Origin: Clostridia bacterium | GTDB lineage: Bacteria; Bacillota; Clostridia; UMGS1840 | Assembly (NCBI GenBank): GCA_045540295.1 | Contig: JAZQGY010000029.1 | Location: 114,983-178,982 of the forward strand | Length of the DNA: 64,000 nucleotides | Reading direction: 5' to 3' | Part shown: positions 3,117 to 64,000 of the stretch, piece by piece | How the letters are laid out: every line of letters begins with the position of its first letter | Numbering within the stretch: position 1 is the first letter of the stretch | Notes under the pieces: generated by a model | The model's input: only the letters and a program-made list of their open reading frames with translations | What the model was told of the DNA's origin: nothing | Database searches by the model: none | Translations under genes and position numbers: made by a program

Positions 3117-3161
3117 TATTTATTGTCCGTTCCATTCTATATAATTCTTTTCCCGGGTAAG

Positions 3162-3205
3162 GAGACTGTGTTGCATTTTTGCAGGCAGTCTCTTTGCCTT
3201 TTTAG
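3162..3205 (+). terminator. Probable terminator after spo0A
   Basis: GAGACTG..TGCA-ttttt-TGCA..CAGTCTC hairpin followed by TTTGCCTTTTT. Confidence 0.45.
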
Positions 3206-3298
3206 TTTGACAATTCTATTACAACTATTGCACTTTCCGACAAAATACTATATAATAAAAATGTTGAATTTTAGGATGTATCCGGGAGTGTATACACG

Positions 3299-4513: not shown

Positions 4514-4643
4514 AAAATCACGAAAAAAACACAGAATATTTTGGTCTTTTCTATTGCGAAAACAGAAAAAATATGGTATACTGAATTGATTATATTTTTT
4601 TAATAACAAATTCCCGGAAAAATAAATGAAAGTAGAGAGTAAT

Positions 4644-7412: not shown

Positions 7413-8532
7413 TTGTTGGAATTTGAAGAATTAAAGCTCCGCTTAACAAACTCCCAAGAACAAATGAACGAATTGAGGGATTCACTTTAATGTTTCTAAA
7501 TTAGAAACAGAAATTACGGAACTTGACCGTCAGTCGGCAGAACCCGGCTTTTGGGAGGATTTAGAAAACTCTCAAAAAGTATTGCAACGGCTGAAGGGCT
7601 TAAAAGATAAGCTCCAAAGCTTTTCCAATCTGGAGACCCTTTATGAGGATATTTTCGTTCTCATTGAATTGGCAGGCGAAGAAGAAGACGCTTCTGATCT
7701 TTTGCAGGAAGCTCTTTCCATGGAAAAAGATTTTGCAAAGAAGCTTGAAACCATGCTTTTGGAAACCTTGTTATCTGAAGAATATGACGGTAATAATGCA
7801 ATCATTTCGCTTCATTCCGGTGCAGGTGGTACTGAAGCTCAGGACTGGGTACAGATGCTTTACAGAATGTATCTTCGTTGGGCGGAAAAAAGAGGTTTTA
7901 AAACTGAAACCTTGGATTATCTGGACGGAGATGAAGCAGGGATTAAAAGCGTTACGGTATTAGTCAGCGGTCTGAATGCTTACGGTTATCTGAAAGCAGA
8001 AAAAGGAGTACATCGACTGGTTCGTATTTCTCCTTTCGATTCCTCCGGCAGACGCCATACTTCTTTTGCATCCTTGGATGTTATGCCGGAATTACCGGAT
8101 GATATTCAGATTGACATCAACCCTGAAGATTTAAAAGTGGACACCTACCGTGCTTCCGGTGCAGGCGGTCAGCATATCAATAAGACGGAATCTGCAATCC
8201 GTATTACTCACATTCCCACGGGCATTGTGGTATCCTGCCAGAACGAACGAAGTCAGCACAAAAACCGTGACACGGCGATGAAAATGCTTTATGCAAAGCT
8301 TCTGGAATTAAAGGAGCAGGCACATAAAGATAAGATTGAGGATTTAAAAGGGGAACAGTTGGATATTGGCTGGGGAAGTCAGATCCGTTCTTATGTGTTC
8401 CATCCCTACAGTATGGTAAAGGATCACAGAACCTTAGAAGAAACCGGGAATGTTACTGCCGTGATGGATGGGGAACTGGATGCGTTCATCAATGCTTATT
8501 TAAAAGAACAGGCGAAAGGAAAAAAAGAATAA
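7413..8532 (+). CDS. prfB: Peptide chain release factor 2, made by a programmed +1 frameshift (7413..7487 joined to 7489..8532)
   Basis: The zero frame reads (M)[24 protein letters not shown] then TAA. The +1 frame continues [32 protein letters not shown].. into ORF 7582..8532. RF2 SPF motif ([15 protein letters not shown]) and GGQ motif are present. TTG start at 7413 lies after AAAGGA. Confidence 0.9.
7475..7491 (+). promoter_or_regulatory. prfB +1 frameshift cassette: SD-like GAGGGA, slippery CTT, in-frame TAA
   Basis: GAGGGA (7475-7480), TTCA, CTT (7485-7487), TAA (7488-7490), T. Same layout as the canonical AGGGGG-nnn-CUU-UGA-C cassette, but the stop is TAA. Confidence 0.8.
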
Positions 8533-8533
8533 G

Positions 8534-9604
8534 ATGTTTGAAAAATTAGGTTTTTTGGAAGAAAAATATATTGAATTAAACAAAAAAGCAGCAGATCCGA
8601 ATGTAATTAGTGATCAGGATCAATTTCGTTCTGTGATGAAAGAAATTTCCGAATTGGAACCTATCGTTGAAAAATATCGGGAATATAAACAGGCCCAGCA
8701 GGAGATGAACGATGCCAAGGAAATGATGGACACCGAATCTGACCATGACCTTCGTGAAATGGCAGAAGCTGAATATTATGACAAGCGTGACCAAAGCGAA
8801 AACATTATTGAGGAAATTAAAATTCTTCTGTTACCCAAGGATGAAAACGACGATAAAAACGTTATTGTTGAAATTCGTGCCGGTGCAGGCGGCGATGAAG
8901 CAGCATTATTTGCCGGAGATTTATACCGTATGTATTCTATGTACGCCATGAATCAGCGGTTTAAAACTGAGGTGATTTCCGAAACTGAAATCGGTATTGG
9001 CGGTTACAAGGAAATTTCCTTCTCGATTGAAGGGAAGGGGGTTTACTCCAAATTAAAATTTGAAAGCGGAGTTCACCGTGTGCAGCGTATTCCGGAAACC
9101 GAATCCGGCGGCAGAATTCATACCTCAACGGTAACCGTTGCTGTGCTACCTGAAGTGGAAGATGTTGAAGTGGAAATCAACCCCGACGATTTAGAGGTGG
9201 ATACCTACCGTTCTTCCGGTGCAGGCGGTCAGCATGTTAATAAAACCGAATCTGCAATTCGTATTACCCATAAGCCTACCGGTATCGTAGTGGCTTGCCA
9301 GAACGAACGAAGCCAACACAAAAACCGTGATATGGCAATGAAAATGCTGCGTTCTAAATTGTATGATATGAAATTGGTTGAGCAGAACAGCAAAATTGCA
9401 GCAGAAAGAAAATCCCAGGTTGGAACAGGGGACAGAAGTGAGCGAATCCGTACTTATAACTATCCCCAGGGACGTGTTACTGACCATAGAATCGGCTTAA
9501 CCATCCAGCAGCTTCCCAATATTATGAACGGCAATATTGATGCTTTTGTGGAAGCATTAATTACGGCAGACAGAAGTGCAAAACTGTTAATGAGTGAAAA
9601 CTAA
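8534..9604 (+). CDS. prfA: Peptide chain release factor 1
   Basis: RF1-type N-terminus [27 protein letters not shown]. PxT-type decoding motif ([14 protein letters not shown]) and GGQ motif. ATG lies 1 nt after the prfB stop. Confidence 0.9.
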
Positions 9605-34662: not shown

Positions 34663-34822
34663 AGCAGAGTAGGAAATAATGCGTTAAGTGAAAAGAGAAC
34701 GGGAAGTTGTCTCTTTTACGAAAGATTGAAAAGGTGCGGGGTATCAAAAGATACCAAAAGATACCAAAAGATGCCAAACGGTACTAAAACAATCTGCGAT
34801 ATTATTTCCGCATTCCGTTGCT
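34663..34822 (+). ncRNA. THF (tetrahydrofolate) riboswitch-like aptamer with an expanded internal helix
   Basis: AGCAGAGUAGGAAAUAAUGCGUUAAGUG...(hairpin AAAGAGA-acGGGAAguu-UCUCUUU)...ACGAAAG...GCGAUAUUAUUUCCGCAUUCCGUUGCU. This matches the remembered THF-I core (AGAGUAG..GCGUUAAGUG..GGGA loop..GCAUCCG). P2 pairing is GGAAAUAAU/AUUAUUUCC and the loop GGGAA is complementary to UUCC. It lies directly upstream of a folate-transporter gene. Confidence 0.7.
34740..34789 (+). repeat. Five degenerate 10-nt tandem units inside the riboswitch insertion
   Basis: GGTATCAAAA GATACCAAAA GATACCAAAA GATGCCAAAC GGTACTAAAA. Confidence 0.85.
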
Positions 34823-34910: not shown

Positions 34911-36680
34911 ATGTCTGAAAAAAGAAATTTAAAAAAACTGGTTTATCTGGCATTTTTGGTTGCCTTAAACATTGTGCTGGTGCGATTACTTTCGCTTCAG
35001 CTGACTCCGGTATTCCGACTGGATTTCGGCTTTGTTCCCATTTCTTTGGCAGGGGCGATGTTCGGCCCTGTATGGGGGGGAGTTGCAGGTGGACTTTCGG
35101 ATATTGCCGGGATGTTGTTTAACAGTAAAGGGATGGCATTTTTCTTCGGTTGGACCTTGAATGCAATTTTACACGGTGTGTTTTACGGATTGTTTCTTCA
35201 TAAAAAAGAGAAAACACTTTTGAGGGTTTCTCTTTGCGTTGTAATCAAAGGAATTGTGATTGACTTGGTTTTAGGAAGCATTTGGGGAGCTATGTTCCGA
35301 GGTGGAATGCACTTGATTGGCTTTGTAATCTGGGAACGTTTGCTTCAATGCCTGATTAAAATTCCTGTAGAAATTGCGATTGGATATTTTTTGCTTCGGG
35401 CGTTATCTAGTCATATTAAGGAGTTGCATCAACCCTCCAAGCAGGAATTTGTGCGATATGCCAATAGCTTTCAAACCGTGATTAACTTAGGGCTTGAACG
35501 GATTTTAAAGCTTTTGGAATGTGTGGGGAATCCGCAGAATCAGCTTTCGGTGATTCATGTTGCAGGAACCAACGGCAAAGGCTCCGTTTGTGCTTTTTTG
35601 CAAACGATGTTAACGAAATCCGGCAAGAAAACCGGTAAGTTTATTTCTCCAAATATGCTTCGTGTTAATGAAAGAATCTCTGTTGACGGTGTTGAAATTT
35701 CCGATGCGGATTTAGAACGGCTTCTTATGAAAATAGAAAGTCATCTTCCGGAGGTTAAGGAAGCAACGGGGGAAATCCCATCTCAGTTTGAGGTGTGGAC
35801 TGCGGTTGCGTTTTGCTATTTTTTAGAACAAAACTGTGACGTGGTAGTTTTGGAAACAGGTTTGGGTGGTCGGTTTGATGCTACCAACGTAGTGAAAAAA
35901 CCGCTTGCTACCGTAATTACGAAAATCGCTATTGACCATGTTGCTTATTTAGGTAATACGATTGATAAAATTGCCTACGAAAAAGCCGGGATTATTAAAG
36001 AGGGAGTTCCATTGATTACACTTGCTCAGGATGAAGCAGCGATGACTGTCTTAAGGAATGTGGCGCAAGAAAAAAATGCTCCTCTATATGTTACAAAAGT
36101 TCCGATTGTGGGTGAGCCAAAAGCACATCACGAAATATTTTCTTATGGGCAATTAACAGATCTTGTTTGTGGGATTTCCGGTTATCATCAAATTGAAAAT
36201 GCTTCTTTGGCGGTGGAAACGGCACTCTATTTAAATCTTAGTGAAAACAATATTCGAGAAGGTTTGAAAGAAGCCCGTCATATCGGTAGATTGGAGTTGG
36301 TGGAGGAGCGGATTCTGTTTGACGGTGCTCATAACTTAAACGGGATGCTGGCACTGAAAAAAAGCTTGGACCGATATTATCCGAATGTCGAAAAAATATT
36401 TGTATCTGCATTTATGAAAGATAAAGATATTTTGAAAAGTTTATCCGTATTTTCAGGCGAAATTTTTTATTTTACTTCGGTAAGCAACAATGAACGTAGT
36501 GAAACGCCTGAAAACCTATGCAAAATCGGAGCAGAAAGCGGTGTTTTCGGAACTGCCTTTTCAGACTTGAAGTCTGCAATTTCAGCTGCAAAAAATACCG
36601 AAAAATTGATTGTAGTATGCGGTTCCTTATACCTCTATCAGGATTTGCACAAAATTATTGAAAAAAACAGAAAAAATTAA
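34911..36680 (+). CDS. folC: Fusion protein: folate-family ECF transporter S component (FolT-like) plus folylpolyglutamate synthase/dihydrofolate synthase (FolC)
   Basis: Residues about 1-165 are polytopic and FolT-like (LVYLAFLVALNIVLVRLLSLQ...FGFVPISLAGAMFGPVWGGVAGGLSDIAG). The remainder is FolC (VIHVAGTNGKGSVCAF P-loop, ETGLGGRFDATN, FDGAHN). Confidence 0.8.
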   Translation: MSEKRNLKKLVYLAFLVALNIVLVRLLSLQLTPVFRLDFGFVPISLAGAMFGPVWGGVAGGLSDIAGMLFNSKGMAFFFGWTLNAILHGVFYGLFLHKKEKTLLRVSLCVVIKGIVIDLVLGSIWGAMFRGGMHLIGFVIWERLLQCLIKIPVEIAIGYFLLRALSSHIKELHQPSKQEFVRYANSFQTVINLGLERILKLLECVGNPQNQLSVIHVAGTNGKGSVCAFLQTMLTKSGKKTGKFISPNMLRVNERISVDGVEISDADLERLLMKIESHLPEVKEATGEIPSQFEVWTAVAFCYFLEQNCDVVVLETGLGGRFDATNVVKKPLATVITKIAIDHVAYLGNTIDKIAYEKAGIIKEGVPLITLAQDEAAMTVLRNVAQEKNAPLYVTKVPIVGEPKAHHEIFSYGQLTDLVCGISGYHQIENASLAVETALYLNLSENNIREGLKEARHIGRLELVEERILFDGAHNLNGMLALKKSLDRYYPNVEKIFVSAFMKDKDILKSLSVFSGEIFYFTSVSNNERSETPENLCKIGAESGVFGTAFSDLKSAISAAKNTEKLIVVCGSLYLYQDLHKIIEKNRKN

Positions 36681-53754: not shown

Positions 53755-53766
53755 TGTTCTGTCTCA

Positions 53767-53805
53767 ATGCACCTCCTTGTCTTCGGACAGGGAAGTGCAT
53801 TTTTT
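53767..53805 (+). terminator. Rho-independent terminator
   Basis: ATGCACCTCCTTGTC-ttcg-GACAGGGAAGTGCAT followed by TTTTTT. Confidence 0.8.
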
Positions 53806-53920
53806 GTCCCGATTATTTTTTAAAATTATTCAAATTACCATATTACAATTCAACTGTAATTTAGAAAATTGTGCAAATTATGGAAAATCAAAAAAAAATC
53901 GAAAAAATACGAAAAATAAC

Positions 53921-53949
53921 TTGTGCAATAAATATGTTTATGTTATAAT
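53921..53949 (+). promoter_or_regulatory. Sigma-A-type promoter candidate for the hdr-like operon (TTGTGC-17-TATAAT)
   Basis: TTGTGC at 53921-53926, TATAAT at 53944-53949. This leaves a leader of about 130-140 nt before ATG 54089. Confidence 0.45.
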
Positions 53950-54088
53950 AATCTAGATATTATATGATACAAGGGTCTGGTTTAAATTATTTTGTTATTT
54001 TTTTAACGAAGTTAGCGTAAATCTAAAGTAGGATCATTTCGTATTATCGTAAGGAACCAGCATTACAAAAGGAAAGGAAACCATTAGT

Positions 54089-54883
54089 ATGAAATACAGT
54101 TACTATCCCGGATGCACCTTGAAAAATAAAGCGAAAGCTTTGGACGAATATGCCAGAAAATGTGCTGAAATTCTTGGCTTCACGTTGGAAGAGATTAAGG
54201 ATTGGCAATGTTGTGGTGGTGTTTATCCGTTAGGAAATGATGAAATTGCAACAAAGTTATCTTCTGTTCGTGCTTTAAATGATGCCAAAGAAAAAGGGCA
54301 AGAATTGGTAACTGTGTGTTCTGCCTGTCATCACGTGTTAAAGCGTGTGAATGATGATATGGCAAATGTACAAGATATCAGAACTCGTGCCAATAATTAT
54401 ATGAATCTTTCTGAGCCTTATGGTGGTGAAACGACCGTTCTTCATTATTTAGAAGTGCTTCGTGACAGAATCGGTTTTGATAAATTAAAAGAAAAAGTGA
54501 CAAATCCTTTAACCGGCAGAAAAATAGGTGCCTACTATGGATGCTTGTTGCTTCGTCCGGGAAAAATTATGGCATTTGATAATCCTGAAAATCCCAGTAT
54601 TATGGAAGACTTTATTCGTGCACTTGGTGCTGAAGCTGTGATTTATCCATACCGCAATGAATGTTGCGGCGGATATATTTCCCTAAAAGAAAAAGATATG
54701 GCAAAATCCATGTGCGATAAAATTTCCGAAAATGCAAAAGGCTTTGGAGCAGACTGTTTAATTACTGCCTGTCCGCTTTGTATGTATAACTTGAATCAAT
54801 CAACGAAAGAATTACCCGTTTACTATTTCACCGAGCTTTTAGCGGAAGCTCTGGGAATCAAAGAGGAGGCAAACGAGGAATGA
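54089..54883 (+). CDS. hdrB: Heterodisulfide reductase subunit B-like protein (two CCG domains)
   Basis: MKYSYYPGCTL.. start. CCG motifs WQCCGG and NECCGG, plus flanking Cys (CSACHH, CPLC). Confidence 0.85.
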   Translation: MKYSYYPGCTLKNKAKALDEYARKCAEILGFTLEEIKDWQCCGGVYPLGNDEIATKLSSVRALNDAKEKGQELVTVCSACHHVLKRVNDDMANVQDIRTRANNYMNLSEPYGGETTVLHYLEVLRDRIGFDKLKEKVTNPLTGRKIGAYYGCLLLRPGKIMAFDNPENPSIMEDFIRALGAEAVIYPYRNECCGGYISLKEKDMAKSMCDKISENAKGFGADCLITACPLCMYNLNQSTKELPVYYFTELLAEALGIKEEANEE

Positions 54884-55266
54884 GTCACAGAAACTATGCT
54901 GAAAAAATTAAAGAAATCAGCGGAGTGAATCCGTATAAGTGTATGAAATGCGGCAAATGCTCAGCTACTTGCCCGTCCTATGATGAAATGGACATTAAAC
55001 CCCATCAGTTTGTAACCTATGTGCAAAACGGAGAAATTGATGCACTGGCAAATTCCAAATCCTTATGGAAATGTTTATCCTGCTTTGCCTGTGTGGAACG
55101 CTGTCCCAGAGATGTAAAACCCGGCAAACTGATTGATGCAGCCCGTCAGATTGTGGTTCGGGAACGTGGCGGTGATTACTTATCCGCAGATGAAATTCCC
55201 GCGTTGTTAGATGAAGAACTTCCCCAGCAGCTTTTGGTGAGTGCCTTCAGAAGATATAAGAGGTAG
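54880..55266 (+). CDS. hdrC: Heterodisulfide reductase subunit C-like 2x[4Fe-4S] protein
   Basis: CMKCGKCSATCP and CLSCFACVERCP. ATGA overlap with hdrB. Confidence 0.8.
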   Translation: MSHRNYAEKIKEISGVNPYKCMKCGKCSATCPSYDEMDIKPHQFVTYVQNGEIDALANSKSLWKCLSCFACVERCPRDVKPGKLIDAARQIVVRERGGDYLSADEIPALLDEELPQQLLVSAFRRYKR

Positions 55267-55275
55267 GTGAGTAGT

Positions 55276-57264
55276 ATGCAGAGAATCGGTGTTTTTGTTT
55301 GTCATTGCGGATCCAATATTGCCGCAACGGTAAATGTTGAAAAAGTTGTTGAAATTATCAAAAAGGAACCCGGCGTGTGTCATGCTGAGGATTATCCTTA
55401 TATGTGTTCCGAAGCAGGTCAGATGAAAATTTTAGAAGCTGTTCGGGAAAAGAATTTAACCGGGATTGTAGTTTGTTCCTGCTCTCCCCGTATGCACGAA
55501 GCTACTTTCCGTAAGGCGGCAGAACGTGCAGGGTTAAACCCCTATATGGTGGAAATTGCCAACATCCGCGAGCATTGCTCCTGGATTCATAAAGATATGG
55601 AAGAAGCAACCGAAAAAGCTGTGATTTTGGCAAGAGCTGCGGTTGCTAAGGTGAATTTAAATACTCCTTTGCAGGCAGGAGAAAGCCGTGTGACCAAACG
55701 TGCGTTGGTAATCGGTGGCGGTATTGCCGGAATTCAGACTGCTTTGGATATTGCGGATGCAGGTTATGAAGTAGACATCGTGGAAAAAACTCCTTCCATC
55801 GGTGGAAGAATGTCTCAGCTTGATAAAACCTTCCCCACATTGGACTGCTCTGCTTGTATTTTAACCCCAAAAATGGTGGAAGCGGCAGCACACGATAAAA
55901 TTAATATCTACACCTATTCCGAAGTGGACAAAGTAACAGGGTTTGTGGGTGACTTTACAGTTGACATCCGTAAGAAAGCAAGAAGTGTTGACAGTAACAA
56001 ATGTACCGGCTGCGGTGTTTGTCAGGAAAAATGTCCTTCCAAGAAATCCTTAAATGAATTTAATCGTGGCTTAAATACCAGAAGTGCCATCTACACTCCT
56101 TTTGCCCAGGCGATTCCCAACGTACCGGTTATCGACCGTGATGCTTGTATCAAGTTTAAAACCGGAAAATGCGGCGTTTGTGAAAAGGTTTGTCAGGCAG
56201 GTGCTATTGATTACAATCAAAAAGACGAAATTATCACAGAAAAATACGGTGCAATCGTGGTTGCTACCGGTTTTGATACCATTAAATTAGATAACTATGA
56301 TGAATATGCTTATAATCAGAGCAAGGACGTTATCACATCTTTAGAGCTGGAACGTATTATGAACGCTGCTGGCCCTACCAAAGGTCACTTAGAGCGTTTA
56401 TCCGACGGAAAAGCTCCCAAGGAAATGGTGTTCATTCAGTGTGTGGGTAGCCGTTGCTCCGATCACAGAGGCAAAAGCTACTGTTCCAAGATCTGCTGTA
56501 TGTATACAGCAAAACACGCAATGCTTATCCGTGATAAATATCCTGATGTGAATGTAACCGTGTTTTATATTGATGTTCGTACTCCCGGTAAAAACTTTGA
56601 CGAGTTTTACAGACGTGCCGTGGAAGAATACGGCGTGAATTACGTAAAAGGTCAGGTAGGTAAAGTTGCACCCCTTCCAAACGGAAAACTGTTGGTGCAG
56701 GGATCTGACTTATTAGATAACAAACAGATTTTAAAAGAAGCAGATATGGTGGTGTTAGCAACCGCTATTGAACCGGAAGCATCTGTTCGTCAGATTGCAA
56801 CGATGCTTACGGCAAGTATTGATACCAATAACTTCTTAACGGAAGCTCATCCTAAGCTCCGTCCTGTGGAATCTCCCACAGCAGGGGTGTTCTTATCCGG
56901 TGTTTGTCAGGGACCTAAAGATATTCCTGAAACGGTTGCTCAGGCTGGTGCCGCAGCAGTAAAAGCTATCGGTCTGTTAGCAAAAGACAAACTAACTACC
57001 AATCCTTGTACTGCAAAAGCAGATGAACTTCTTTGTAACGGTTGCTCTCAGTGTGCAAATGTTTGTCCCTACGGTGCAATCACTTATTTGGATAAAGAAG
57101 TAAATGATCACGGAATCCGTGAAGTAAGAAGAGTGGCTCAGGTGAATAATGCACTCTGTCAGGGCTGCGGTGCTTGTACCGTAACCTGTCCGTCCGGTGC
57201 GATGGACTTGCAGGGCTTCTCCAACAGACAAATTATTGCGGAGGTGGATGCAATATGCCGTTAA
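55276..57264 (+). CDS. hdrA: Heterodisulfide reductase subunit A-like FAD/Fe-S protein
   Basis: RIGVFVCHCGSNI start, FAD fold ALVIGGGIAGIQTALDIADAGYEV, several CxxCxxCxxxCP clusters, about 660 aa. GTG 55267 is an alternative start. Confidence 0.85.
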   Translation: MQRIGVFVCHCGSNIAATVNVEKVVEIIKKEPGVCHAEDYPYMCSEAGQMKILEAVREKNLTGIVVCSCSPRMHEATFRKAAERAGLNPYMVEIANIREHCSWIHKDMEEATEKAVILARAAVAKVNLNTPLQAGESRVTKRALVIGGGIAGIQTALDIADAGYEVDIVEKTPSIGGRMSQLDKTFPTLDCSACILTPKMVEAAAHDKINIYTYSEVDKVTGFVGDFTVDIRKKARSVDSNKCTGCGVCQEKCPSKKSLNEFNRGLNTRSAIYTPFAQAIPNVPVIDRDACIKFKTGKCGVCEKVCQAGAIDYNQKDEIITEKYGAIVVATGFDTIKLDNYDEYAYNQSKDVITSLELERIMNAAGPTKGHLERLSDGKAPKEMVFIQCVGSRCSDHRGKSYCSKICCMYTAKHAMLIRDKYPDVNVTVFYIDVRTPGKNFDEFYRRAVEEYGVNYVKGQVGKVAPLPNGKLLVQGSDLLDNKQILKEADMVVLATAIEPEASVRQIATMLTASIDTNNFLTEAHPKLRPVESPTAGVFLSGVCQGPKDIPETVAQAGAAAVKAIGLLAKDKLTTNPCTAKADELLCNGCSQCANVCPYGAITYLDKEVNDHGIREVRRVAQVNNALCQGCGACTVTCPSGAMDLQGFSNRQIIAEVDAICR

Positions 57265-57695
57265 ATGAAAATGAATTCAGACCCAAAATTGTTGCATTTT
57301 GCTGTAACTGGTGTAGCTATGCCGGTGCAGACTTGGCAGGTAGCAGCCGTCTCTCGTATCCTGCGGATGTCAAAATCATTAAAGTACCTTGTTCCTGCCG
57401 TGTAAATCCTATGTTTATTCTGCGTGCATTTGAAAAAGGTGCCGACGGGGTTATCATTTGCGGATGCCATCCCGGAGACTGTCATTATTCTACCGGGAAT
57501 TACTATGCACGTCGCCGTATGACCTTGCTGTTTTCCATGCTGGAATATTTAGGCATTGAAAAGGGCAGAACCCGTGTGGAATGGGTTTCTGCGGCAGAAG
57601 GTGTGAAATTCTCTCAGACGATGAATGAATTTGTGGAAACCATTCGTTCTCTGGGTAAAAATGTGAGATTGGGGGATTTACGATGCAAGAATTAG
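57255..57695 (+). CDS. mvhD: MvhD/FlxD-like [2Fe-2S] electron-transfer subunit
   Basis: KIVAFCCNWCSYAGADLAG...KVPCSCRV...ICGCHPGDCHY. Overlaps hdrA by 10 nt. Confidence 0.85.
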   Translation: MPLNENEFRPKIVAFCCNWCSYAGADLAGSSRLSYPADVKIIKVPCSCRVNPMFILRAFEKGADGVIICGCHPGDCHYSTGNYYARRRMTLLFSMLEYLGIEKGRTRVEWVSAAEGVKFSQTMNEFVETIRSLGKNVRLGDLRCKN

Positions 57696-58651
57696 TAAAA
57701 CGTGCAGCCGAGCTTTTAAAAGACGGCACCGTTGCCCGTGTGCTTGGTTGGAAAATCGGCGATCTTCCCTATAATCCGGAACCGGCATTTTTTGAAAGTG
57801 TAGAATCTTTATCCGATTTTGTATATAATGCTTTTTGCGGTGCAAACTTAAGCAAATATATGATTGAAGCCTCCAAAAAAGACGGCAAAACCTTAGTATT
57901 TTTAAAGCCTTGTGATTCCTATAGCTTTAACCAACTGTTAAAAGAACACCGTGTTGACCGTGATAAGGCATATATCATCGGTGTTGGGTGCAAAGGAAAA
58001 TTGGATATTGAAAACATCAGAAAGCAGGGCATCAAGGGAATTGAAGCTATTCAAGGCATCGAGATGAGTGATGTTTGCGATACTTTAAAAATCTCCACCG
58101 TATATGGTGACAAAACCTGTTCCTATGATGATGCAATGCTTTCTCGTTGTCACTCCTGCAAAGGCAAAGAACACGTGATTTTTGACGAACAGATTGGTGA
58201 ATCCCGTGATACTGCAACTCTGGACAGATTCTCCGAAGTGGAAGCCATCGAAAAAATGTCTCCCATAGAAAAATTTGAATTTTTCCGCAAGGAACTGTCT
58301 AAATGTATCCGTTGCAATGCTTGCAGAAATGTTTGTCCTGCCTGCAGTTGCAGAAAATGTGTGTTTGACAGTGACAAATTTGACAGTGCTCAGAAAGCCA
58401 ACGTGGACACCTTCCAGGAAAATATGTTCCATATTATCCGTGCGTTCCATGTAGCCGGCAGATGTACTGACTGTGGAGAATGTAGTCGTGTTTGCCCTCA
58501 GGGTATTCCGCTTCATTTGTTTAACCGTAAATTCATCAAAGATATCAACGATTTTTACGGTGATTATACCGCAGGGGAAGATATCAACAATGAGGCTCCT
58601 TTAACTCACTTTGAGTTTTCCGATAGAGAGCCTAACGAAGAAAGGGGATAA
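57683..58651 (+). CDS. Iron-sulfur subunit (FlxC / FrhB-like; two ferredoxin-type Cys clusters)
   Basis: CIRCNACRNVCPACSC and CTDCGECSRVCPQGIP. The N-terminal part (LKPCDSYS...IGVGC) resembles F420-hydrogenase beta-type folds. Overlaps mvhD by 13 nt. Confidence 0.6.
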   Translation: MQELVKRAAELLKDGTVARVLGWKIGDLPYNPEPAFFESVESLSDFVYNAFCGANLSKYMIEASKKDGKTLVFLKPCDSYSFNQLLKEHRVDRDKAYIIGVGCKGKLDIENIRKQGIKGIEAIQGIEMSDVCDTLKISTVYGDKTCSYDDAMLSRCHSCKGKEHVIFDEQIGESRDTATLDRFSEVEAIEKMSPIEKFEFFRKELSKCIRCNACRNVCPACSCRKCVFDSDKFDSAQKANVDTFQENMFHIIRAFHVAGRCTDCGECSRVCPQGIPLHLFNRKFIKDINDFYGDYTAGEDINNEAPLTHFEFSDREPNEERG

Positions 58652-58654
58652 TGT

Positions 58655-59686
58655 ATGTTAAAGATATTAAAAAATAATTTACCCGCATTATTCCAAAAAA
58701 TCAAAGAACAAAGAGAATTGTACCTTCCCATTCGTGTGGCCGACCAGGTGAACTTTGGCGTTTACAGCGAGGATGCGGAGGTTTCGCTGGATACTTTAAA
58801 AACCGTAAAATCTCCCAAAGATGCTTTCTTCCCGCAGAGTGAAACCTTATATATCTGCAATAAAGAAGAAAACAAATGGTCCATTACTCCCGAAGAACTG
58901 CAAAGTCAGGAATTTGTGGTGTTTGGTATTAAAGCCTGTGATGTAAAGGGCATTGAGGTGCTGGATCAGGTGTTCTTAGCAGAACCTGTCGATACCTTTT
59001 ACAAGGCTCGCCGTGACCACGGTATTTTAGTGGCATTAGCTTGCAGCGAACCGGAAGAAAGCTGCTTCTGCAAAGCCTTCGGTATTGACTGCACCGACCC
59101 CAAAGCAGATGTTGCTACCTGGTTGGTTGGCGATGAACTTTACTGGAATCCCTTAACCGAAAAAGGTCAGATTCTGACAGATGCGGTAAAAGATTTACTG
59201 GAAGAAACTGAGGATTCCAAAGTGAAAGCGCAGCAGGACACAACTAAAAAAATCGTGGAAAAACTCCCGTATATGAACCTTTCCTTGGAAGGTTGGAACG
59301 GTGATGTGTTAACCGAAAAATTTGAGTCTCCCTTGTGGGAAGAACTGTATCAACCATGTCTGGCTTGTGGAACCTGCACGTTTGTGTGTCCCACCTGCCA
59401 GTGTTACGATATTAAGGATTATACTACCGGAAATGGCGTTCAGCGTTACCGCTGCTGGGATTCTTGTATGTATTCCGATTTTACCATGATGGCTCACGGT
59501 AACAACCGTACCTCTCAGATGCAGCGGTTCCGTCAGAGATTTATGCACAAATTGGTGTATTTCCCGGCAAATAATGACGGGATGTATTCTTGTGTAGGTT
59601 GTGGCAGATGTGTGGAAAAATGTCCGTCTGCATTAAATATAGTAAAAGTCATCAAAGCATTTTCTAAGGAAGGGGGAGCCAAATAA
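58655..59686 (+). CDS. Iron-sulfur subunit (AsrA / sulfhydrogenase-beta / FlxB-like)
   Basis: CLACGTCTFVCPTCQCYD and CVGCGRCVEKCP. About 340 aa, as in AsrA and HydB. Confidence 0.65.
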   Translation: MLKILKNNLPALFQKIKEQRELYLPIRVADQVNFGVYSEDAEVSLDTLKTVKSPKDAFFPQSETLYICNKEENKWSITPEELQSQEFVVFGIKACDVKGIEVLDQVFLAEPVDTFYKARRDHGILVALACSEPEESCFCKAFGIDCTDPKADVATWLVGDELYWNPLTEKGQILTDAVKDLLEETEDSKVKAQQDTTKKIVEKLPYMNLSLEGWNGDVLTEKFESPLWEELYQPCLACGTCTFVCPTCQCYDIKDYTTGNGVQRYRCWDSCMYSDFTMMAHGNNRTSQMQRFRQRFMHKLVYFPANNDGMYSCVGCGRCVEKCPSALNIVKVIKAFSKEGGAK

Positions 59687-60540
59687 TGTGCGATTGTAAC
59701 TGTCACGAAAATTATAATTTAGACACTTTAATTCCGAAAATCGGCGTGATTACTGAAATCACTCAGCAGACTCCCGACGTAAAAACCTTCCGCGTCAATG
59801 CTCCCGAAGGCGGAAAATTGTTTGAACATCTGCCCGGGCAGTGTGCTATGATTTCTGTTCCCGGAGTTGGGGAAGCAATGTTTTCCATTACTTCTTCTCC
59901 CACCAACAAAGACTATCAGGAATTCAGCATCAAAAAATGCGGTGTATTAACTGATTATCTTCATACTATGGAAGTTGGCGAAGAACTAACCGTCAGAGGA
60001 CCCTACGGCAACAATTTCCCTGTGGAAACTGAACTCAAAGGTAAAAATCTTCTGTTTATTGCCGGCGGTATCGGATTGGCACCTCTTCGTTCTGTGATTA
60101 ACTATGTCATTGATAACCGCCAAAATTATGGCACCGTAGATATTCTGTACGGTTCCAGAAGCATGGATGATTTAGTTGGTTTAAAAGAAATTCAACAGGT
60201 TTGGGCAAAAGAAGAGGGCATTAACGTGCACCTCACTATTGACCGTGAGCAGGAAGGCTGGAGCGGTCACGTAGGATTTGTGCCGTCCTTCTTAAAAGAG
60301 ATTGGTTTTGAAAATAACAAAACGGCTTTAGTTTGCGGACCACCGATTATGATTAAATTCGTGTTGCAGGCACTAGAAGAAATGGGCTTCTCCAAAGAGC
60401 AGGTTTATACCACGCTGGAGCTTCGTATGAAATGTGGCGTTGGTAAATGCGGCAGATGTAATATTGGCTCTAAATACGTTTGCAAAGACGGACCGGTATT
60501 CCGTTGTGACGAAATTGATGAATTGCCTGACGAATATTAA
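59686..60540 (+). CDS. FAD/NAD(P)-binding oxidoreductase subunit with C-terminal [2Fe-2S] (AsrB / PyrK / sulfhydrogenase-gamma / FlxA-like)
   Basis: Ferredoxin-reductase-type fold (RPYS-like FSITSSP, LFIAGGIGLAPL). C-terminal CGVGKCGRCNIG....C. One-nucleotide overlap (TAATG) with the preceding gene. Confidence 0.75.
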   Translation: MCDCNCHENYNLDTLIPKIGVITEITQQTPDVKTFRVNAPEGGKLFEHLPGQCAMISVPGVGEAMFSITSSPTNKDYQEFSIKKCGVLTDYLHTMEVGEELTVRGPYGNNFPVETELKGKNLLFIAGGIGLAPLRSVINYVIDNRQNYGTVDILYGSRSMDDLVGLKEIQQVWAKEEGINVHLTIDREQEGWSGHVGFVPSFLKEIGFENNKTALVCGPPIMIKFVLQALEEMGFSKEQVYTTLELRMKCGVGKCGRCNIGSKYVCKDGPVFRCDEIDELPDEY

Positions 60541-60558
60541 GAAAGGATGGATGCTACG

Positions 60559-61233
60559 ATGGAAAATAAAGTAAATGTGTATTTCTTCGGGAAACAGTAT
60601 CAGGTTCCTGCAGATTTAACAATTATGACCGCTATGGAATATGCGGGCTATACCTTAAAAAGAGGATGTGGCTGCCGTCACGGTTTTTGTGGTGCTTGTG
60701 CTACCATTTACCGTATTAAAGGGCAGAACGAATTAAAAACCTGTCTGGCTTGTCAGACTCAGGTACAGGAAGGAATGTATGTGGCAAGCATCCCGTTCTT
60801 TCCTACCGATAAAAGAACATATAGCATTAACGATATCAAACCCAATCAGCAGGTTATGATGGAATTATATCCCGAAATTTACAGCTGTATCGGTTGTAAT
60901 GCCTGCACCAAGGCTTGTACCCAGGATTTGGATGTTATGCAGTATATTGCTCACGCTCAGAGAGGCGAATTTGAAAAATGTGCGGAATTATCCTTTGACT
61001 GTGTCGGTTGCGGATGCTGTTCCGTAAGATGCCCTGCAGGTATCTCCCATCCCATGGTCGGGGTGTTGGCTCGCCGTTTAACCGGTAAATACATTGCACC
61101 CGAGACTGAGCATTTGAAAAATCGTGTAGAAGAAATCAATCACGGCGAATTCGACAATCTGATTGAGCAGATTATGCAAAAACCTATCGCTGAGATGAAA
61201 GAACTCTATAACACCCGAGAAATTGAGAAGTAA
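60559..61233 (+). CDS. SdhB/FrdB-like iron-sulfur protein
   Basis: N-terminal [2Fe-2S] pattern CRHGFCGACATIY....LAC. Then CIGCNACTKAC and CVGCGCCSVRCP. ATG 60559 lies 11 nt after GAAAGGA; ATG 60547 is an alternative. Confidence 0.65.
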   Translation: MENKVNVYFFGKQYQVPADLTIMTAMEYAGYTLKRGCGCRHGFCGACATIYRIKGQNELKTCLACQTQVQEGMYVASIPFFPTDKRTYSINDIKPNQQVMMELYPEIYSCIGCNACTKACTQDLDVMQYIAHAQRGEFEKCAELSFDCVGCGCCSVRCPAGISHPMVGVLARRLTGKYIAPETEHLKNRVEEINHGEFDNLIEQIMQKPIAEMKELYNTREIEK

Positions 61234-61245
61234 GGAGGAGAGAAT

Positions 61246-62844
61246 ATGTTTACTGAATCTATGCTGGAATCTATTAAAAAAGTAGAAGCAACCAGAGCAG
61301 AACGTATGAAAACAGAACCCAGAAGAATGACTGCGGATGAAAAACAGGCTCTCCTTGAACAGTATCATCCTGACTATCGTAAAGAAGGGTTTAAAGAAAT
61401 TAAAATCGGTCCCAACAAAGGAGAAAAAGCTCCTTCCGAACTGACTGATTTAATCCATTCCAACAGCCGCTTATTACATGAGGACATCGATTTATCCAAA
61501 GTGGACTATGATGTTGATGTCTTGGTAATCGGCGGTGGCGGTGCCGGTTCTTCTGCGGCTATTGAAGCACATGAAGCTGGTGCCAACGTAATGATTGTTA
61601 CCAAATTAAGAATCGGTGATGCCAACACCATGATGGCAGAAGGCGGTATCCAGGCAGCGGACAAAGAAAATGACTCTCCTGTTCAGCATTATCTGGATGC
61701 ATTCGGCGGCGGTCATTTTGCAGCCCGTCCGGAACTGTTAAAACGTTTGGTTATGGAAGCACCTGATGCAATCCGTTGGTTAAACGATTTAGGTGTAATG
61801 TTTGATAAAGATCCTGACGGCAGAATGGTTACCACTCACGGTGGCGGTACTTCTCGCAAAAGGATGCACGCATGTAAAGACTATTCCGGCGCAGAAATTA
61901 TGAGAACCCTGCGAGACGAAGTCATTAACCGTAAAATTCCGGTAGTAGAATTTACTTCTGCAGTGGAACTGATTAAAGATGACAAAGGTCAGGTTGCAGG
62001 TGCGGTTCTTTTGAATATGGAAACCGATGATTACCTAATTGCAAAAGCAAAAACCGTCATTATTGCAACCGGCGGTGCAGGAAGACTGCATTATCAGAAT
62101 TTCCCCACCTCCAATCACTACGGTGCAACTGCAGACGGTCTGATTTTAGGCTATCGTGCCGGTGCTCCGCTTTTGTATCAGGATACCATTCAGTATCATC
62201 CTACCGGTGTTGCATATCCTTCTCAGATTTTTGGTGCATTGGTAACTGAAAAAGTGCGTTCTTTAGGTGCAATGCTTGTTAATAAAGACGGGGAAGCCTA
62301 TGCGCATCCCTTAGAAACCCGTGACGTTTCCGCATCCGCAATTATCCGTGAATGTGCAAACGGAAAAGGGGTAGACACTCCTTTAGGAAGCGGTGTTTGG
62401 CTGGATACTCCTATGATTGAAATCTTAGGAGGAGAAGGCACCATTGAAAAACGAATCCCCGCAATGCTCAGAATGTATTTAAATTATGGCATTGATATGA
62501 GAAAACAGCCGATTTTAGTATATCCCACACTTCACTATCAGAACGGCGGCTTGGAAATCGGTGGTGAAGGTTACACCAAAGCAATCCCTAATCTGTTGGT
62601 TGCCGGGGAAGCAGTTGGCGGTATTCACGGAAGAAACCGTCTGATGGGGAACTCCCTGTTGGATATTATTGTATTCGGACGTAACGCCGGAAAAGCAGCA
62701 GCAAGAAAAGCAAAAGAAGTGGAACTTGGTGCAATGAACTTAGATCACATTCAGGCGTATGCAAAAGAACTGGAACAGGCAGGAATCGCAAATGATGGTG
62801 TATCTCCCATGCTGTTACCCCAGTATGCCCGTCACGAAAGATAA
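61246..62844 (+). CDS. SdhA/FrdA/NadB-family FAD flavoprotein with an N-terminal extension of about 95 aa
   Basis: DVLVIGGGGAGSSAAIEA dinucleotide fold begins near residue 95. Also IQYHPTG and AGEAVGGIHGRNRLMGNSLLDIIVFGR. No His at the covalent-FAD position (DANTMMAEGGIQAA). AAGGAGG RBS. Confidence 0.75.
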   Translation: MFTESMLESIKKVEATRAERMKTEPRRMTADEKQALLEQYHPDYRKEGFKEIKIGPNKGEKAPSELTDLIHSNSRLLHEDIDLSKVDYDVDVLVIGGGGAGSSAAIEAHEAGANVMIVTKLRIGDANTMMAEGGIQAADKENDSPVQHYLDAFGGGHFAARPELLKRLVMEAPDAIRWLNDLGVMFDKDPDGRMVTTHGGGTSRKRMHACKDYSGAEIMRTLRDEVINRKIPVVEFTSAVELIKDDKGQVAGAVLLNMETDDYLIAKAKTVIIATGGAGRLHYQNFPTSNHYGATADGLILGYRAGAPLLYQDTIQYHPTGVAYPSQIFGALVTEKVRSLGAMLVNKDGEAYAHPLETRDVSASAIIRECANGKGVDTPLGSGVWLDTPMIEILGGEGTIEKRIPAMLRMYLNYGIDMRKQPILVYPTLHYQNGGLEIGGEGYTKAIPNLLVAGEAVGGIHGRNRLMGNSLLDIIVFGRNAGKAAARKAKEVELGAMNLDHIQAYAKELEQAGIANDGVSPMLLPQYARHER

Positions 62845-62863
62845 ATTGAAATAAGAAATTGAA

Positions 62864-62900
62864 ATTCCCCGAAGATTCTAAAAAAGAAGCTTCGGGGAAT
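62864..62900 (+). other. Strong 11-bp stem hairpin after the flavoprotein gene (no T-tract)
   Basis: ATTCCCCGAAG-15 nt loop-CTTCGGGGAAT, followed by CAAACGG. Confidence 0.5.
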
Positions 62901-62922
62901 CAAACGGAAAGGAAGTAAAATT

Positions 62923-64000
62923 ATGGAACTCTTTGGCGGTGTCATTCCCATTACCGGAATTTCATTTTTGATGTTTTGTGTGTTTGCAATTTTGTTTGGC
63001 GGATATGCTCTCGGCAGAATTACCATTAAAGGCGTTTCTTTGGGAGATGCCGGCGTATTTATTATTGCATTAGTGTTCGGTGCTTTGTTTTATGGGCCGT
63101 TAGAAGCTCAGTTAAAATTGGGAGAAGCCAATTATGCAGAACAGGCACTTACCATTATTGAAAATCTTGGCTTGATTTTATTTGTTACCTCGGTTGGTTT
63201 TATTGCAGGGCCTAAATTCTTCGGAAATATGAAGAAAAACTTTAAATCTTACGTGTTATTAGGGCTTGTGATTATTTTAGCAGGTGGTTTGGCAGCAGCA
63301 GGTTGTATTTACATGGGTGAAGTTTTTGGCTATGGAAGTACAATTGCTGAACAAGATGGCTTTGTTGCTATGATTGTTGGTCTTCTGTCCGGTTCCTTAA
63401 CCTCCACACCTGCTTTTTCTGCAGCAAAAGCAACTGTGGCACAGGAATATACTGGTTTGGTGTCCGTTGGCCACGGGATTGCCTACATTTTTGGAGTTAT
63501 CGGTGTGGTACTGTTTGTACAGTTAATTCCCAAACTGACTAAAGCCAACATGGATGAAGAACGTGCAAAATTAGTACAGTCAACCGGTGAAGACAACAAT
63601 AAAAAATCTCAGAAAAAATTATTTTATTTGGACGGACACGGCTTTGCGGTGTTTGCATTAGCTGCTGTAGTCGGAACATTCTTAGGAAAAATTAAAATTC
63701 CCTTGACTGCTGCAGGTCTTGACGGTACCTGCTTCTCTCTGACCACTACCGGTGGCTGCTTGTTAGCTTCCTTGGTATTCGGTCACTTTGGCAGAATTGG
63801 CAGAGTAAGCATTATGCCCGACCAGCATACTTTAAAACTGTTCCGTGAACTTGGTTTGGTACTGTTCTTGGTTGGAGCAGGTATTCCCGGCGGTGCAGAG
63901 TTTGTTGCAACTTTTGATATTATGTACTTTGTATACGGTATCATTATGACGATTGTTCCCATGATTATCGGTTTCCTGTTTGCAAAATACGTATTAAAAC
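62923..64000 (+). CDS. AspT/YidE/YbjL-family transporter (3' end outside the window)
   Basis: ATG 62923 after GGAAAGGAAG. The frame is open to the window end. Two homologous membrane halves with GLILFVTSVGFIAGPKFF and GLVLFLVGAGIPGG motifs, joined by a short linker with no RCK_C domains. This ORF is not in the supplied track because it is truncated. Confidence 0.72.
   Translation, partial: MELFGGVIPITGISFLMFCVFAILFGGYALGRITIKGVSLGDAGVFIIALVFGALFYGPLEAQLKLGEANYAEQALTIIENLGLILFVTSVGFIAGPKFFGNMKKNFKSYVLLGLVIILAGGLAAAGCIYMGEVFGYGSTIAEQDGFVAMIVGLLSGSLTSTPAFSAAKATVAQEYTGLVSVGHGIAYIFGVIGVVLFVQLIPKLTKANMDEERAKLVQSTGEDNNKKSQKKLFYLDGHGFAVFALAAVVGTFLGKIKIPLTAAGLDGTCFSLTTTGGCLLASLVFGHFGRIGRVSIMPDQHTLKLFRELGLVLFLVGAGIPGGAEFVATFDIMYFVYGIIMTIVPMIIGFLFAKYVLK

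Follow-up and report, generated by a model that had tools for sequence, protein, structure and literature searches.

A conserved Hdr–Flx–FrdBA gene cluster of gut Clostridia as a candidate soluble, electron-bifurcating fumarate reductase

Among described systems, the one closest to that examined here comes from Pseudoclostridium (Hungateiclostridium) thermosuccinogenes. Its "succinate operon" comprises fumC, a set of seven Flx-Hdr genes, a fumarate reductase encoded by two genes, and one small hypothetical gene (Koendjbiharie et al., BMC Microbiol 2020, PMC7282089). That paper calls the fumarate reductase unique and states that it couples the formation of succinate to the reduction of ferredoxin (PMC7282089, citing Koendjbiharie & van Kranenburg, Preprints 2019). 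The 83-residue hypothetical protein encoded after frdA has been proposed to be a succinate transporter. A similar link has been proposed for gene clusters of a reductive tricarboxylic acid cycle from tubeworm symbionts (Ca. Endoriftia) and Thioflavicoccus mobilis, where tfrAB and korABCD lie among the flxABCD-hdrABC genes (Rubin-Blum et al. 2019, PMC6315080; Mitchell et al. 2024, PMC11636981); according to a 2026 review, the Flx-Hdr/Tfr coupling in the tubeworm symbionts remains a suggestion (PMC13147460). A 2024 comparative preprint on HdrA recorded HdrA-Sdh/Frd associations in Firmicutes and in Ruminococcus champanellensis and left them uninterpreted. Here we describe a nine-gene cluster of this kind, hdrB-hdrC-hdrA-flxD(mvhD)-flxC-flxB-flxA-frdB-frdA, at positions 54089–62844 on the + strand of a 64-kb stretch of a Clostridia bacterium genome (contig JAZQGY010000029.1), the whole of which we refer to as the window. 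We consider it probable, though well short of certain, that the nine genes encode one soluble, multi-subunit, bifurcating fumarate reductase that catalyzes the last step of an oxaloacetate to malate to fumarate to succinate branch in a spore-forming gut Clostridium.

A first-pass annotation of the window had interpreted the cluster as a candidate uncharacterised electron-bifurcating reductase, and our results support that interpretation overall. The novelty that it implied is overstated. We found no biochemically assigned orthologue, which leaves the enzyme uncharacterised, but the architecture and the bifurcation idea had already been published for P. thermosuccinogenes, with a similar link in the tubeworm symbionts. 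The cluster thus belongs to a described, biochemically uncharacterised kind for which both architecture and hypothesis appeared in 2019. We add to this by showing how widely and how strictly the cluster is conserved in gut Clostridia and by describing its conserved malate dehydrogenase (mdh), fumarase and permease neighborhood. We also report that the same FrdBA family occurs beside an Mvh hydrogenase-Hdr set in the genome of an Asgard archaeon and, in Gammaproteobacteria, beside a NuoF-like subunit.

The nine genes appear in the open reading frame (ORF) listing of the window as same-strand ORFs that overlap or nearly touch, as had been noted on first inspection. In order, their junctions measure −4 (ATGA), 0, −10, −13, +3, −1 (TAATG), +6 and +12 nt, and each of the nine starts is preceded by a purine-rich Shine-Dalgarno-like stretch. 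A genome scan, with one genome per species, returned at least 596 relatives, of which the best 80 (71–92% identity) were examined; these come from Oscillospiraceae, Acutalibacteraceae, Lachnospiraceae, Christensenellaceae and other Clostridia. All 57 of the 80 loci that have room for the whole cluster carry the nine genes in the same order and orientation. Given this colinearity chance is not an issue, and the nine genes are confirmed as a real operon. Isolates in culture that possess the cluster include Lachnospiraceae bacterium 3-2, Sporofaciens musculi, Fusicatenibacter faecihominis, Christensenella tenuis and Ohessyouella blattaphilus; the genome collection contains no close representative of the window's own species, and an exact-match look-up of the window's FrdA found no record. 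The cluster proteins are ~90% identical to those of the closest relatives while the DNA is ~73–74% identical (window versus loci L001, L006, L008, L018 and L050), which indicates strong purifying selection with synonymous sites near saturation. Recent horizontal transfer, considered as an explanation for ~90% protein identity across families, is unsupported at a DNA identity of ~73%.

Domains were called by Pfam and NCBIfam profile searches, and solved chains were used for the comparison of HdrA, HdrB, FrdB and FrdA. By these measures all nine subunit assignments of the first-pass annotation hold. None of the nine proteins reaches the curated cut-off of any NCBIfam equivalog model, and they therefore cannot be filed in a characterized family by score. 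HdrA matches the NCBIfam HdrA2 model with 795 bits and the Methanothermobacter wolfeii HdrA chain 5odc_A, a bifurcating subunit of known structure, with 687 bits over residues 5–663, every cysteine motif being kept. Judged by its sequence, HdrA is thus a full-length protein of the bifurcating type, predicted to carry its flavin adenine dinucleotide (FAD) and all ferredoxin domains. HdrB contains two stretches of Pfam CCG; its best NCBIfam match is SdhE of methylmenaquinol:fumarate reductase (148 bits), followed by HdrB itself (140 bits), both below cut-off, and it aligns with solved HdrB chains at 117–126 bits with both cysteine sets for the non-cubane [4Fe-4S] clusters in register. HdrC is a Fer4_8/Fer4_17 dicluster protein in Pfam and scores 65.6 bits with the NCBIfam HdrC model and 59.9 bits with QmoC.

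The Flx subunits are similarly recognizable. MvhD/FlxD matches Pfam FlpD (E = 7.8e-56) and aligns with the C-terminal MvhD part of the NCBIfam HdrA2 model. FlxC has Fer4_8 at residues 204–275 and, in its N-terminal half, a weak sub-threshold match to FrhB_FdhB_C (E = 4e-4, 20.7 bits against a cut-off of 23.3). FlxB matches Fer4_22 (E = 4.5e-31) and, in NCBIfam, ShyB (208 bits) and AsrA (159 bits), both below cut-off. FlxA combines FAD_binding_6, NAD_binding_1 and DHODB_Fe-S_bind in Pfam, matches AsrB/PyrK/HydG-type models in NCBIfam, and is presumed to be the entry point for NADH. Throughout all nine proteins the Kyte-Doolittle mean of any 19-residue window stays below 1.6. The predicted proteins are by this criterion soluble, without a membrane-spanning segment, and no membrane-anchor gene was found near the cluster, either in the window or among the neighbors of the related loci; the earlier description of the Frd-like pair as anchorless is thereby borne out.

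FrdB matches Fer2_4 and Fer4_7 in Pfam and, in NCBIfam, dhsB and the N-terminal half of TfrB (TfrB residues 18–173, E = 2.3e-8); its matches to SdhB chains have E values of about 4e-5. Its second motif, read from the translation as CxxCxxCxxxCP, contains four cysteines, which suggests a [4Fe-4S] cluster at the position of the [3Fe-4S] cluster of complex II. A natural FrdB-FrdA fusion protein exists (P0123).

FrdA contains Pfam FAD_binding_2 at residues 91–471 (E = 2e-69). Its nearest curated family is TfrA (NF004900; 340.8 bits against a cut-off of 718, E = 1e-101), and it scores 260 bits against a cut-off of 452.75 with NadB (TIGR00551). The best sequence matches in the PDB are M. smegmatis Sdh1 SdhA, E. 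coli SdhA and E. coli FrdA, and an AlphaFold2 model of FrdA (predicted template modeling score 0.81) has E. coli FrdA (1KF6) and M. smegmatis SdhA (7D6V) as its top fold matches. The fold search returned Frd/Sdh/NadB flavoproteins only and nothing unrelated. Aspartate oxidase, APS (adenosine phosphosulfate)-reductase-like and other flavoprotein identities are ruled out by the family scores, the fold matches and the gene context: FrdA is always paired with an iron-sulfur subunit and has fumarase and mdh neighbors, whereas NadB is a stand-alone enzyme in an NAD-synthesis context.

The flavoprotein is atypical, and the three peculiarities originally listed for it are real. The GGGGAG motif begins at residue 96, after a 95-residue extension; Asn127 aligns with His45 of E. 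coli SdhA, the covalent-FAD histidine; and TEKVRSLGA stands at the alignment position of TEGCRGEGG in SdhA. A further peculiarity had been missed: FrdA lacks the C-terminal helical domain Succ_DH_flav_C, in that PF02910 finds no match and the SdhA alignment stops near residue 487–512 of 532. The N-terminal extension is modeled with confidence (block predicted local distance difference test values of 80–92) and carries conserved HPDY and GxNxG motifs. A Pfam search of this 95-residue extension and of the 54-residue C-terminal tail gave no match, and a reading of the extension as a C-terminal domain that has been displaced has no support.

Two family alignments, the first of which extends to ~41% identity, were used to examine the active site. 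Asparagine occupies the position of the covalent-FAD histidine in every family member. When the covalent link to the flavin is lost, the flavin potential drops; fumarate reduction stays intact while succinate oxidation is disabled, and the enzyme should thus work as a fumarate reductase. FrdA residues His318, Thr334, Glu335, Arg338, Arg359, His430 and Arg465 correspond to His242, Thr254, Glu255, Arg258, Arg286, His354 and Arg399 of E. coli SdhA. All but Thr334 are invariant in both alignments; Thr334 is invariant in the second only and is replaced by Ser in some distant members of the first. On the basis of these catalytic and dicarboxylate-binding residues and of the neighboring genes described below, the substrate of FrdA is almost certainly fumarate. 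The initial caution that the substrate need not be fumarate is countered by the residues that bind and protonate fumarate, together with the fumarase, malate dehydrogenase and permease genes that flank the cluster in relatives.

Forty of the examined loci have enough flanking sequence for the neighbors to be read: fumarase is present in 39, a lactate dehydrogenase (LDH)-like dehydrogenase in 33 and an AspT/SucE-type permease in 31. In the Oscillospiraceae/Lachnospiraceae type the LDH-family dehydrogenase lies 5′ of hdrB and the alpha and beta subunits of a class I fumarase lie 3′ of frdA, with the AspT-type permease either before or after the fumarase; in the closest relatives, fumarase alpha/beta directly follow the permease. 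In the Christensenellaceae type the dehydrogenase and a class II fumC are both 5′ of hdrB and the permease is 3′ of frdA. The flanking fumarases exceed their NCBIfam cut-offs. The flanking dehydrogenase scores as an L-lactate dehydrogenase but has Arg in the loop GLARKPGQTR, and since a Gln102Arg switch in the LDH-type loop marks oxaloacetate specificity, we read it as a malate dehydrogenase. In the closest relative this LDH-like malate dehydrogenase gene sits between a symporter gene and hdrB (L001:1-2850), where the window has a 334-nt spacer (53755–54088), and no mdh homologue was found within the whole 64-kb window.

The permease gene that follows frdA in the window encodes a protein with a match to Pfam Asp-Al_Ex (E = 2e-40) and to NCBIfam AspT-family models and with eight transmembrane-like segments. 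The AspT family includes a known succinate exporter, and the permease, which may be a succinate exporter or an exchanger of C4-dicarboxylates, probably exports succinate. In 13 of the loci a conserved membrane protein of ~104 residues, without a Pfam match, is encoded 3′ of the cluster (L073:9429-9743 and 12 others), and one is also encoded directly after a FrdB-FrdA fusion gene (L085:7449-7682). It may be the counterpart of the 83-residue hypothetical protein encoded 3′ of frdA in P. thermosuccinogenes.

The FrdB-FrdA pair also occurs outside the Clostridia, in other company. The nearest outgroup of the clostridial FrdA proteins is archaeal, at 56–60% identity. A contig with a member of the Bathyarchaeota-type archaeal clade reads kor(4 subunits)-hdrA-mvhD-hdrC-hdrB-frdB-frdA, and a complete Bathyarchaeota genome has malic enzyme and fumarase alpha/beta directly 5′ of frdB-frdA. 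An Asgardarchaeia metagenome-assembled genome (MAG) (JBNGVH010000002.1; L090:1-11656) has the order kor(4 subunits)-hdrA-mvhD-mvhG-mvhA-protease-hdrC-hdrB-frdB-frdA. Its hdrA (L090:2617-4539) is absent from the gene calls and is 51% identical to HdrA of the window; across 2625-4600 the best reading frame has two stop codons, and a selenocysteine codon in frame, or a frameshift, may account for one of them. This Asgard cluster, in which the HdrBC-FrdBA end is joined to a [NiFe] hydrogenase in place of Flx, looks like an H2-driven version of the same fumarate-reducing Hdr complex. In Gammaproteobacteria (a Ridgeia tubeworm symbiont, Thiorhodococcus minor and a marine MAG; L081, L083 and L084: 9350-12890), frdB-frdA are followed by an overlapping NuoF-like gene with Complex1_51K and NADH_4Fe-4S domains, and there is no hdr gene; these units are candidates for a simple soluble NADH:fumarate reductase. 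In the tubeworm symbiont the unit adjoins two malate dehydrogenase genes, citrate synthase and korAB, encoding 2-oxoglutarate:ferredoxin oxidoreductase. More distant members of the FrdBA family stand alone.

The genes that neighbor the archaeal and gammaproteobacterial pairs support fumarate as the substrate, and the joining of HdrBC to FrdBA under different gene orders and with different inputs supports a functional tie with exchangeable input modules. The first-pass annotation had listed a frdBA pair not conserved next to hdr/flx genes in relatives as a refuting finding; the coupling is kept throughout the 57 relatives with room for the cluster and recurs with another order and input in archaea. 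Exchange of the input module (H2, formate, F420H2 or NADH) is a known pattern of Hdr-based bifurcating complexes. It is in our estimation an evenly balanced proposition that the extended, non-covalent-FAD FrdA together with FrdB forms a portable fumarate output module. HdrBC-FrdBA would then put fumarate reduction in the place of heterodisulfide reduction. Its electrons would come from NADH through FlxABC in Clostridia of the gut and rumen, in hundreds of species, and from H2 through the MvhAG hydrogenase in Asgard archaea, with a non-bifurcating, NuoF-only form in sulfur-oxidizing Gammaproteobacteria.

For the window we propose the following electron path. NADH would be oxidized at FlxA, and the iron-sulfur proteins FlxB, FlxC and MvhD would carry the electrons to the FAD of HdrA, at which flavin the pair would be bifurcated. 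The low-potential electron would leave through the ferredoxin domains of HdrA to ferredoxin, while the high-potential electron would pass from HdrC to HdrB, through the three clusters of FrdB, and on to the non-covalent FAD of FrdA, where fumarate would be reduced to succinate. Fumarate would thus fill the role that the coenzyme M–coenzyme B heterodisulfide (CoM-S-S-CoB) has in methanogen Hdr. The net reaction would be 2 NADH + fumarate + 2 oxidized ferredoxin (one-electron) → 2 NAD+ + succinate + 2 reduced ferredoxin, and the reduced ferredoxin could then drive Rnf or a hydrogenase, so that energy is conserved or electrons are disposed of. NADH-dependent fumarate reduction yields about −58 kJ/mol (table in PMC13147460), which is more than enough for the uphill reduction of ferredoxin by NADH, and part of this energy would be recovered without quinones or a membrane-bound Frd. 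In P. thermosuccinogenes the related cluster is highly expressed, with a ~4-fold rise under CO2 limitation, and H2 in the headspace abolishes succinate formation (PMC7282089); the latter effect is expected if ferredoxin must be re-oxidized.

Several observations weigh against this proposal. In the literature searched we found no purification or assay of such an enzyme, and bifurcation is a suggestion in all of the sources found. HdrB keeps both of its complete CCG cysteine sets, which makes a thiol/disulfide intermediate possible. Members of the FrdBA family in Gammaproteobacteria are paired with a NuoF-like subunit only, and, as described in a review, a soluble five-subunit fumarate reductase of Hydrogenobacter runs on NADH without bifurcation (PMC13147460). 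The likeness to the P. thermosuccinogenes genes is one of gene order and gene sizes. Finally, the window has no malate dehydrogenase or fumarase gene beside the cluster; it ends inside the permease gene, before any fumarase.

Of the competing explanations, the one that survives best, although we regard it as unlikely, is a plain, non-bifurcating NADH:fumarate oxidoreductase in which the Flx, MvhD and Hdr subunits serve as an electron wire to FrdBA and no ferredoxin is reduced. The Hydrogenobacter thermophilus enzyme just mentioned shows that soluble, irreversible, NADH-dependent multi-subunit fumarate reductases exist (PMC13147460), and the NuoF-only arrangement in Gammaproteobacteria shows that the FrdBA core needs no bifurcating partner. 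A wire of this kind, however, would waste the ~58 kJ/mol and leaves unexplained why strong purifying selection has preserved a complete bifurcating-type HdrA, with both of its ferredoxin-domain pairs, and MvhD in all 57 complete loci; moreover, the archaeal Mvh-Hdr-FrdBA layout copies that of the bifurcating MvhADG-HdrABC.

Rather less likely still is a thiol-mediated route, in which Flx-HdrABC would reduce a disulfide carrier with NADH, bifurcating to ferredoxin as has been put forward for the Flx-Hdr of Desulfovibrio with DsrC, and HdrB with FrdBA, acting as a thiol:fumarate reductase comparable to methanogen TfrAB, would re-oxidize the thiol. Both cysteine sets of the disulfide-reducing site are indeed kept in HdrB, TfrA is the nearest curated family of the flavoprotein, HdrB, HdrC and FrdB jointly span the domains of the fused TfrB, and a DsrC-like intermediate has also been considered in the tubeworm-symbiont literature. 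Yet the cluster has only one HdrBC pair, so that the same site would have both to make and to consume the thiol, and neither the cluster of the window nor the 80 related loci contain a gene for a DsrC-like or other thiol carrier. CCG proteins are, besides, also pure electron-transfer partners of Sdh/Frd, and it is the SdhE of such a reductase that HdrB matches best in NCBIfam. Very improbable is an action of the flavoprotein on L-aspartate, another enoate or a disulfide, which would suit its extension, its missing C-terminal domain, its RSLGA for RGEGG, its scores under every curated cut-off and a downstream permease of the aspartate:alanine antiporter family, but is opposed by conserved dicarboxylate-binding and proton-donor residues (with Ser for Thr334 in some distant members), by fumarase beside the cluster in 39 of 40 relatives and, with malic enzyme, in a Bathyarchaeota genome, by tubeworm symbiont FrdBA lying among malate dehydrogenases, citrate synthase and 2-oxoglutarate:ferredoxin oxidoreductase, and by the fact that no nadA/nadC context was seen.

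Many succinate-forming Clostridia have, to our knowledge, neither quinones nor a membrane-bound fumarate reductase. A bifurcating fumarate reductase of the proposed kind probably lets such quinone-less gut Clostridia conserve energy while making succinate, a major cross-feeding and host-signaling metabolite in guts and rumens. If the proposal is true, it would explain how the reductive branch yields energy for these bacteria and why their succinate output responds to H2 and CO2 (PMC7282089), and it would add a new class of acceptor to flavin-based electron bifurcation. If the FrdBA pair is in addition a portable module, no earlier flavin-based bifurcating enzyme would have had fumarate as its high-potential acceptor, and the system would amount to fumarate respiration without quinones, shaping how much succinate and H2 are released in animal guts. 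The cluster is easy to recognize and is present in cultured isolates, which makes the hypothesis directly testable.

Transcription signals around the cluster were also considered (Table 1). Upstream, an AT-rich spacer of 334 nt parts the cluster from a gene of the sodium:neurotransmitter-symporter family that closes with a terminator-like hairpin. The single promoter-like element claimed on first inspection can be read by eye in this spacer, but a consensus scan did not single it out, because its −35 hexamer agrees with the consensus at three of six bases only. The scan found 28 promoter-like strings in the region against 19.2 ± 4.3 expected from shuffled sequence, ~2 standard deviations above chance, and is weak evidence; a single promoter for the operon at this element is plausible but unproven. 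The DNA upstream in the window showed no similarity to that of the 80 related loci, and a Rex-type operator was considered and dropped, only Rex-like strings with three mismatches being present. Between frdA and the permease gene, which are 78 nt apart in total, lies an RNA hairpin (z = −4.78; none of 200 shuffles as stable) that lacks a U tract on the + strand and was not among the matches of a terminator scan. It may be a partial terminator or a transcript-stabilizing element.

Table 1. Positions of the cluster genes and adjoining features, in window coordinates
Feature	Position	Strand	Remarks
Promoter-like element	53921..53949	+	TTGTGC, 17-nt spacer, TATAAT; TG two bases 5′ of the −10 (extended −10); read by eye; ~140 nt 5′ of hdrB
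hdrB-like, 264 aa	54089..54883	+	Two CCG domains
hdrC-like, 128 aa	54880..55266	+	Two [4Fe-4S] motifs; ATGA overlap with hdrB
hdrA, 665 aa	55267..57264	+	GTG start; alternative ATG at 55276, three codons in
mvhD/flxD, 146 aa from ATG	57255..57695	+	10-nt overlap with hdrA; longest ORF opens at TTG 57174
flxC-like iron-sulfur protein, 322 aa	57683..58651	+	13-nt overlap with mvhD
flxB-like iron-sulfur protein, 343 aa	58655..59686	+	AsrA / sulfhydrogenase beta type
flxA-like NAD(P)H-binding flavoprotein, 284 aa	59686..60540	+	C-terminal [2Fe-2S] site
frdB-like iron-sulfur subunit, 228 aa	60547..61233	+	N-terminal [2Fe-2S] domain, two CxxCxxCxxxC motifs
frdA-like flavoprotein, 532 aa	61246..62844	+	95-aa N-terminal extension
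RNA hairpin between frdA and permease gene	62859..62903	+	−21.9 kcal/mol
AspT/YidE/YbjL-family permease gene	62923..64000	+	Cut by window end

The rest of the window is an ordinary spore-former chromosome with genes for Spo0A, SpoIIR, SecA, release factors, SMC, FtsY, Obg, pyruvate phosphate dikinase, GAPDH and IMPDH. A tetrahydrofolate (THF) riboswitch (82 bits) at 34663–34822 precedes an ORF (34911–36680) that joins an energy-coupling factor (ECF)-transporter S component to Mur-ligase (folylpolyglutamate synthase-like) domains. Two release-factor genes are adjacent (7582–8532 and 8534–9604), and the first of these ORFs enters the PCRF profile at position 29, which would fit prfB with its programmed frameshift. 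Between spo0A and secA, a 404-residue ORF (3299–4513) has no Pfam match at E ≤ 1e-5.

Set beside the described systems, the cluster is closest to the P. thermosuccinogenes operon. Both have seven Flx/Hdr genes followed by two Frd genes on one strand, and the gene sizes nearly coincide: 1603 nt there versus 1599 nt in the window for frdA, 676 versus 687 for frdB, 5348 versus 5274 for the five middle genes and 784 versus 795 for hdrB (PMC7282089 supplement). The proposed function, fumarate reduction coupled to ferredoxin reduction, is also the same, and an adjacent fumarase is shared with the Christensenellaceae-type relatives. Unlike P. thermosuccinogenes, the window has no fumC or mdh upstream, and an AspT-type permease gene follows frdA in place of the gene for the 83-residue hypothetical protein. 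The published case for P. thermosuccinogenes draws on transcript levels and the genomic setting and includes no enzyme assay.

The tubeworm symbiont cluster likewise ties an anchorless two-subunit fumarate reductase to Flx-Hdr, and the hypothesis put forward for it, in which electrons from NADH are split between fumarate and ferredoxin, is the same. Its setting is autotrophic CO2 fixation with 2-oxoglutarate:ferredoxin oxidoreductase genes, whereas that of the window is fermentation. The tubeworm-symbiont homologue recovered here (P0356) lies in a cluster other than that of the published Flx-Hdr-linked tfrA, by the NuoF-like gene and korAB. Compared by published description, the H. thermophilus enzyme is a soluble, five-subunit, NADH-linked fumarate reductase that works irreversibly and whose catalytic subunit is SdhA-like (Miura et al. 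2008, as relayed by PMC13147460); it has scattered genes and no HdrA or MvhD and, in that account, is not known to bifurcate. Complex II and membrane-bound Frd (E. coli FrdABCD, 1KF6; M. smegmatis Sdh1, 7D6V) provide the best structure and sequence matches and have the same catalytic residues as FrdA of the window; the window pair differs from them in having no anchor, no covalent-FAD histidine, no C-terminal domain and a four-cysteine motif at the [3Fe-4S] place.

The seven-subunit Flx-Hdr set itself is that of Desulfovibrio vulgaris FlxABCD-HdrABC: FlxA with NAD(P)H, FAD and [2Fe-2S] sites, the iron-sulfur proteins FlxB and FlxC, FlxD corresponding to MvhD, and HdrA, HdrB and HdrC. For that system, reportedly described by Ramos and colleagues in 2015, the disulfide of DsrC is said to be the proposed high-potential acceptor. 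The order in the window, hdrB-C-A-flxD-C-B-A, differs from that in Desulfovibrio, and, unlike Desulfovibrio, the window has a Frd pair attached and no gene for DsrC or a similar carrier in the cluster or its conserved neighbors. TfrAB, the thiol:fumarate reductase of Methanothermobacter reportedly described by Heim and colleagues in 1998, is soluble and anchorless like the window pair, and FrdB, HdrC and HdrB each match parts of TfrB. In contrast to the fused TfrB, the iron-sulfur (FrdB) and CCG (HdrB) parts are separate proteins in the window, and the flavoprotein differs from TfrA in its N-terminal extension and in a score less than half of the equivalog cut-off. We know of no bacterium with this type of cluster that makes coenzyme M or coenzyme B. 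In methanogen MvhADG-HdrABC (5ODC), finally, HdrA, HdrB and MvhD are clear homologues of the window proteins, with the cluster ligands conserved, and both follow one plan, in which an input module feeds a bifurcating HdrA and HdrBC forms the output. The two would differ at their ends, with NADH-oxidizing Flx in the window in place of a [NiFe] hydrogenase, and with fumarate, reached through FrdBA, as the proposed terminal acceptor in place of CoM-S-S-CoB.

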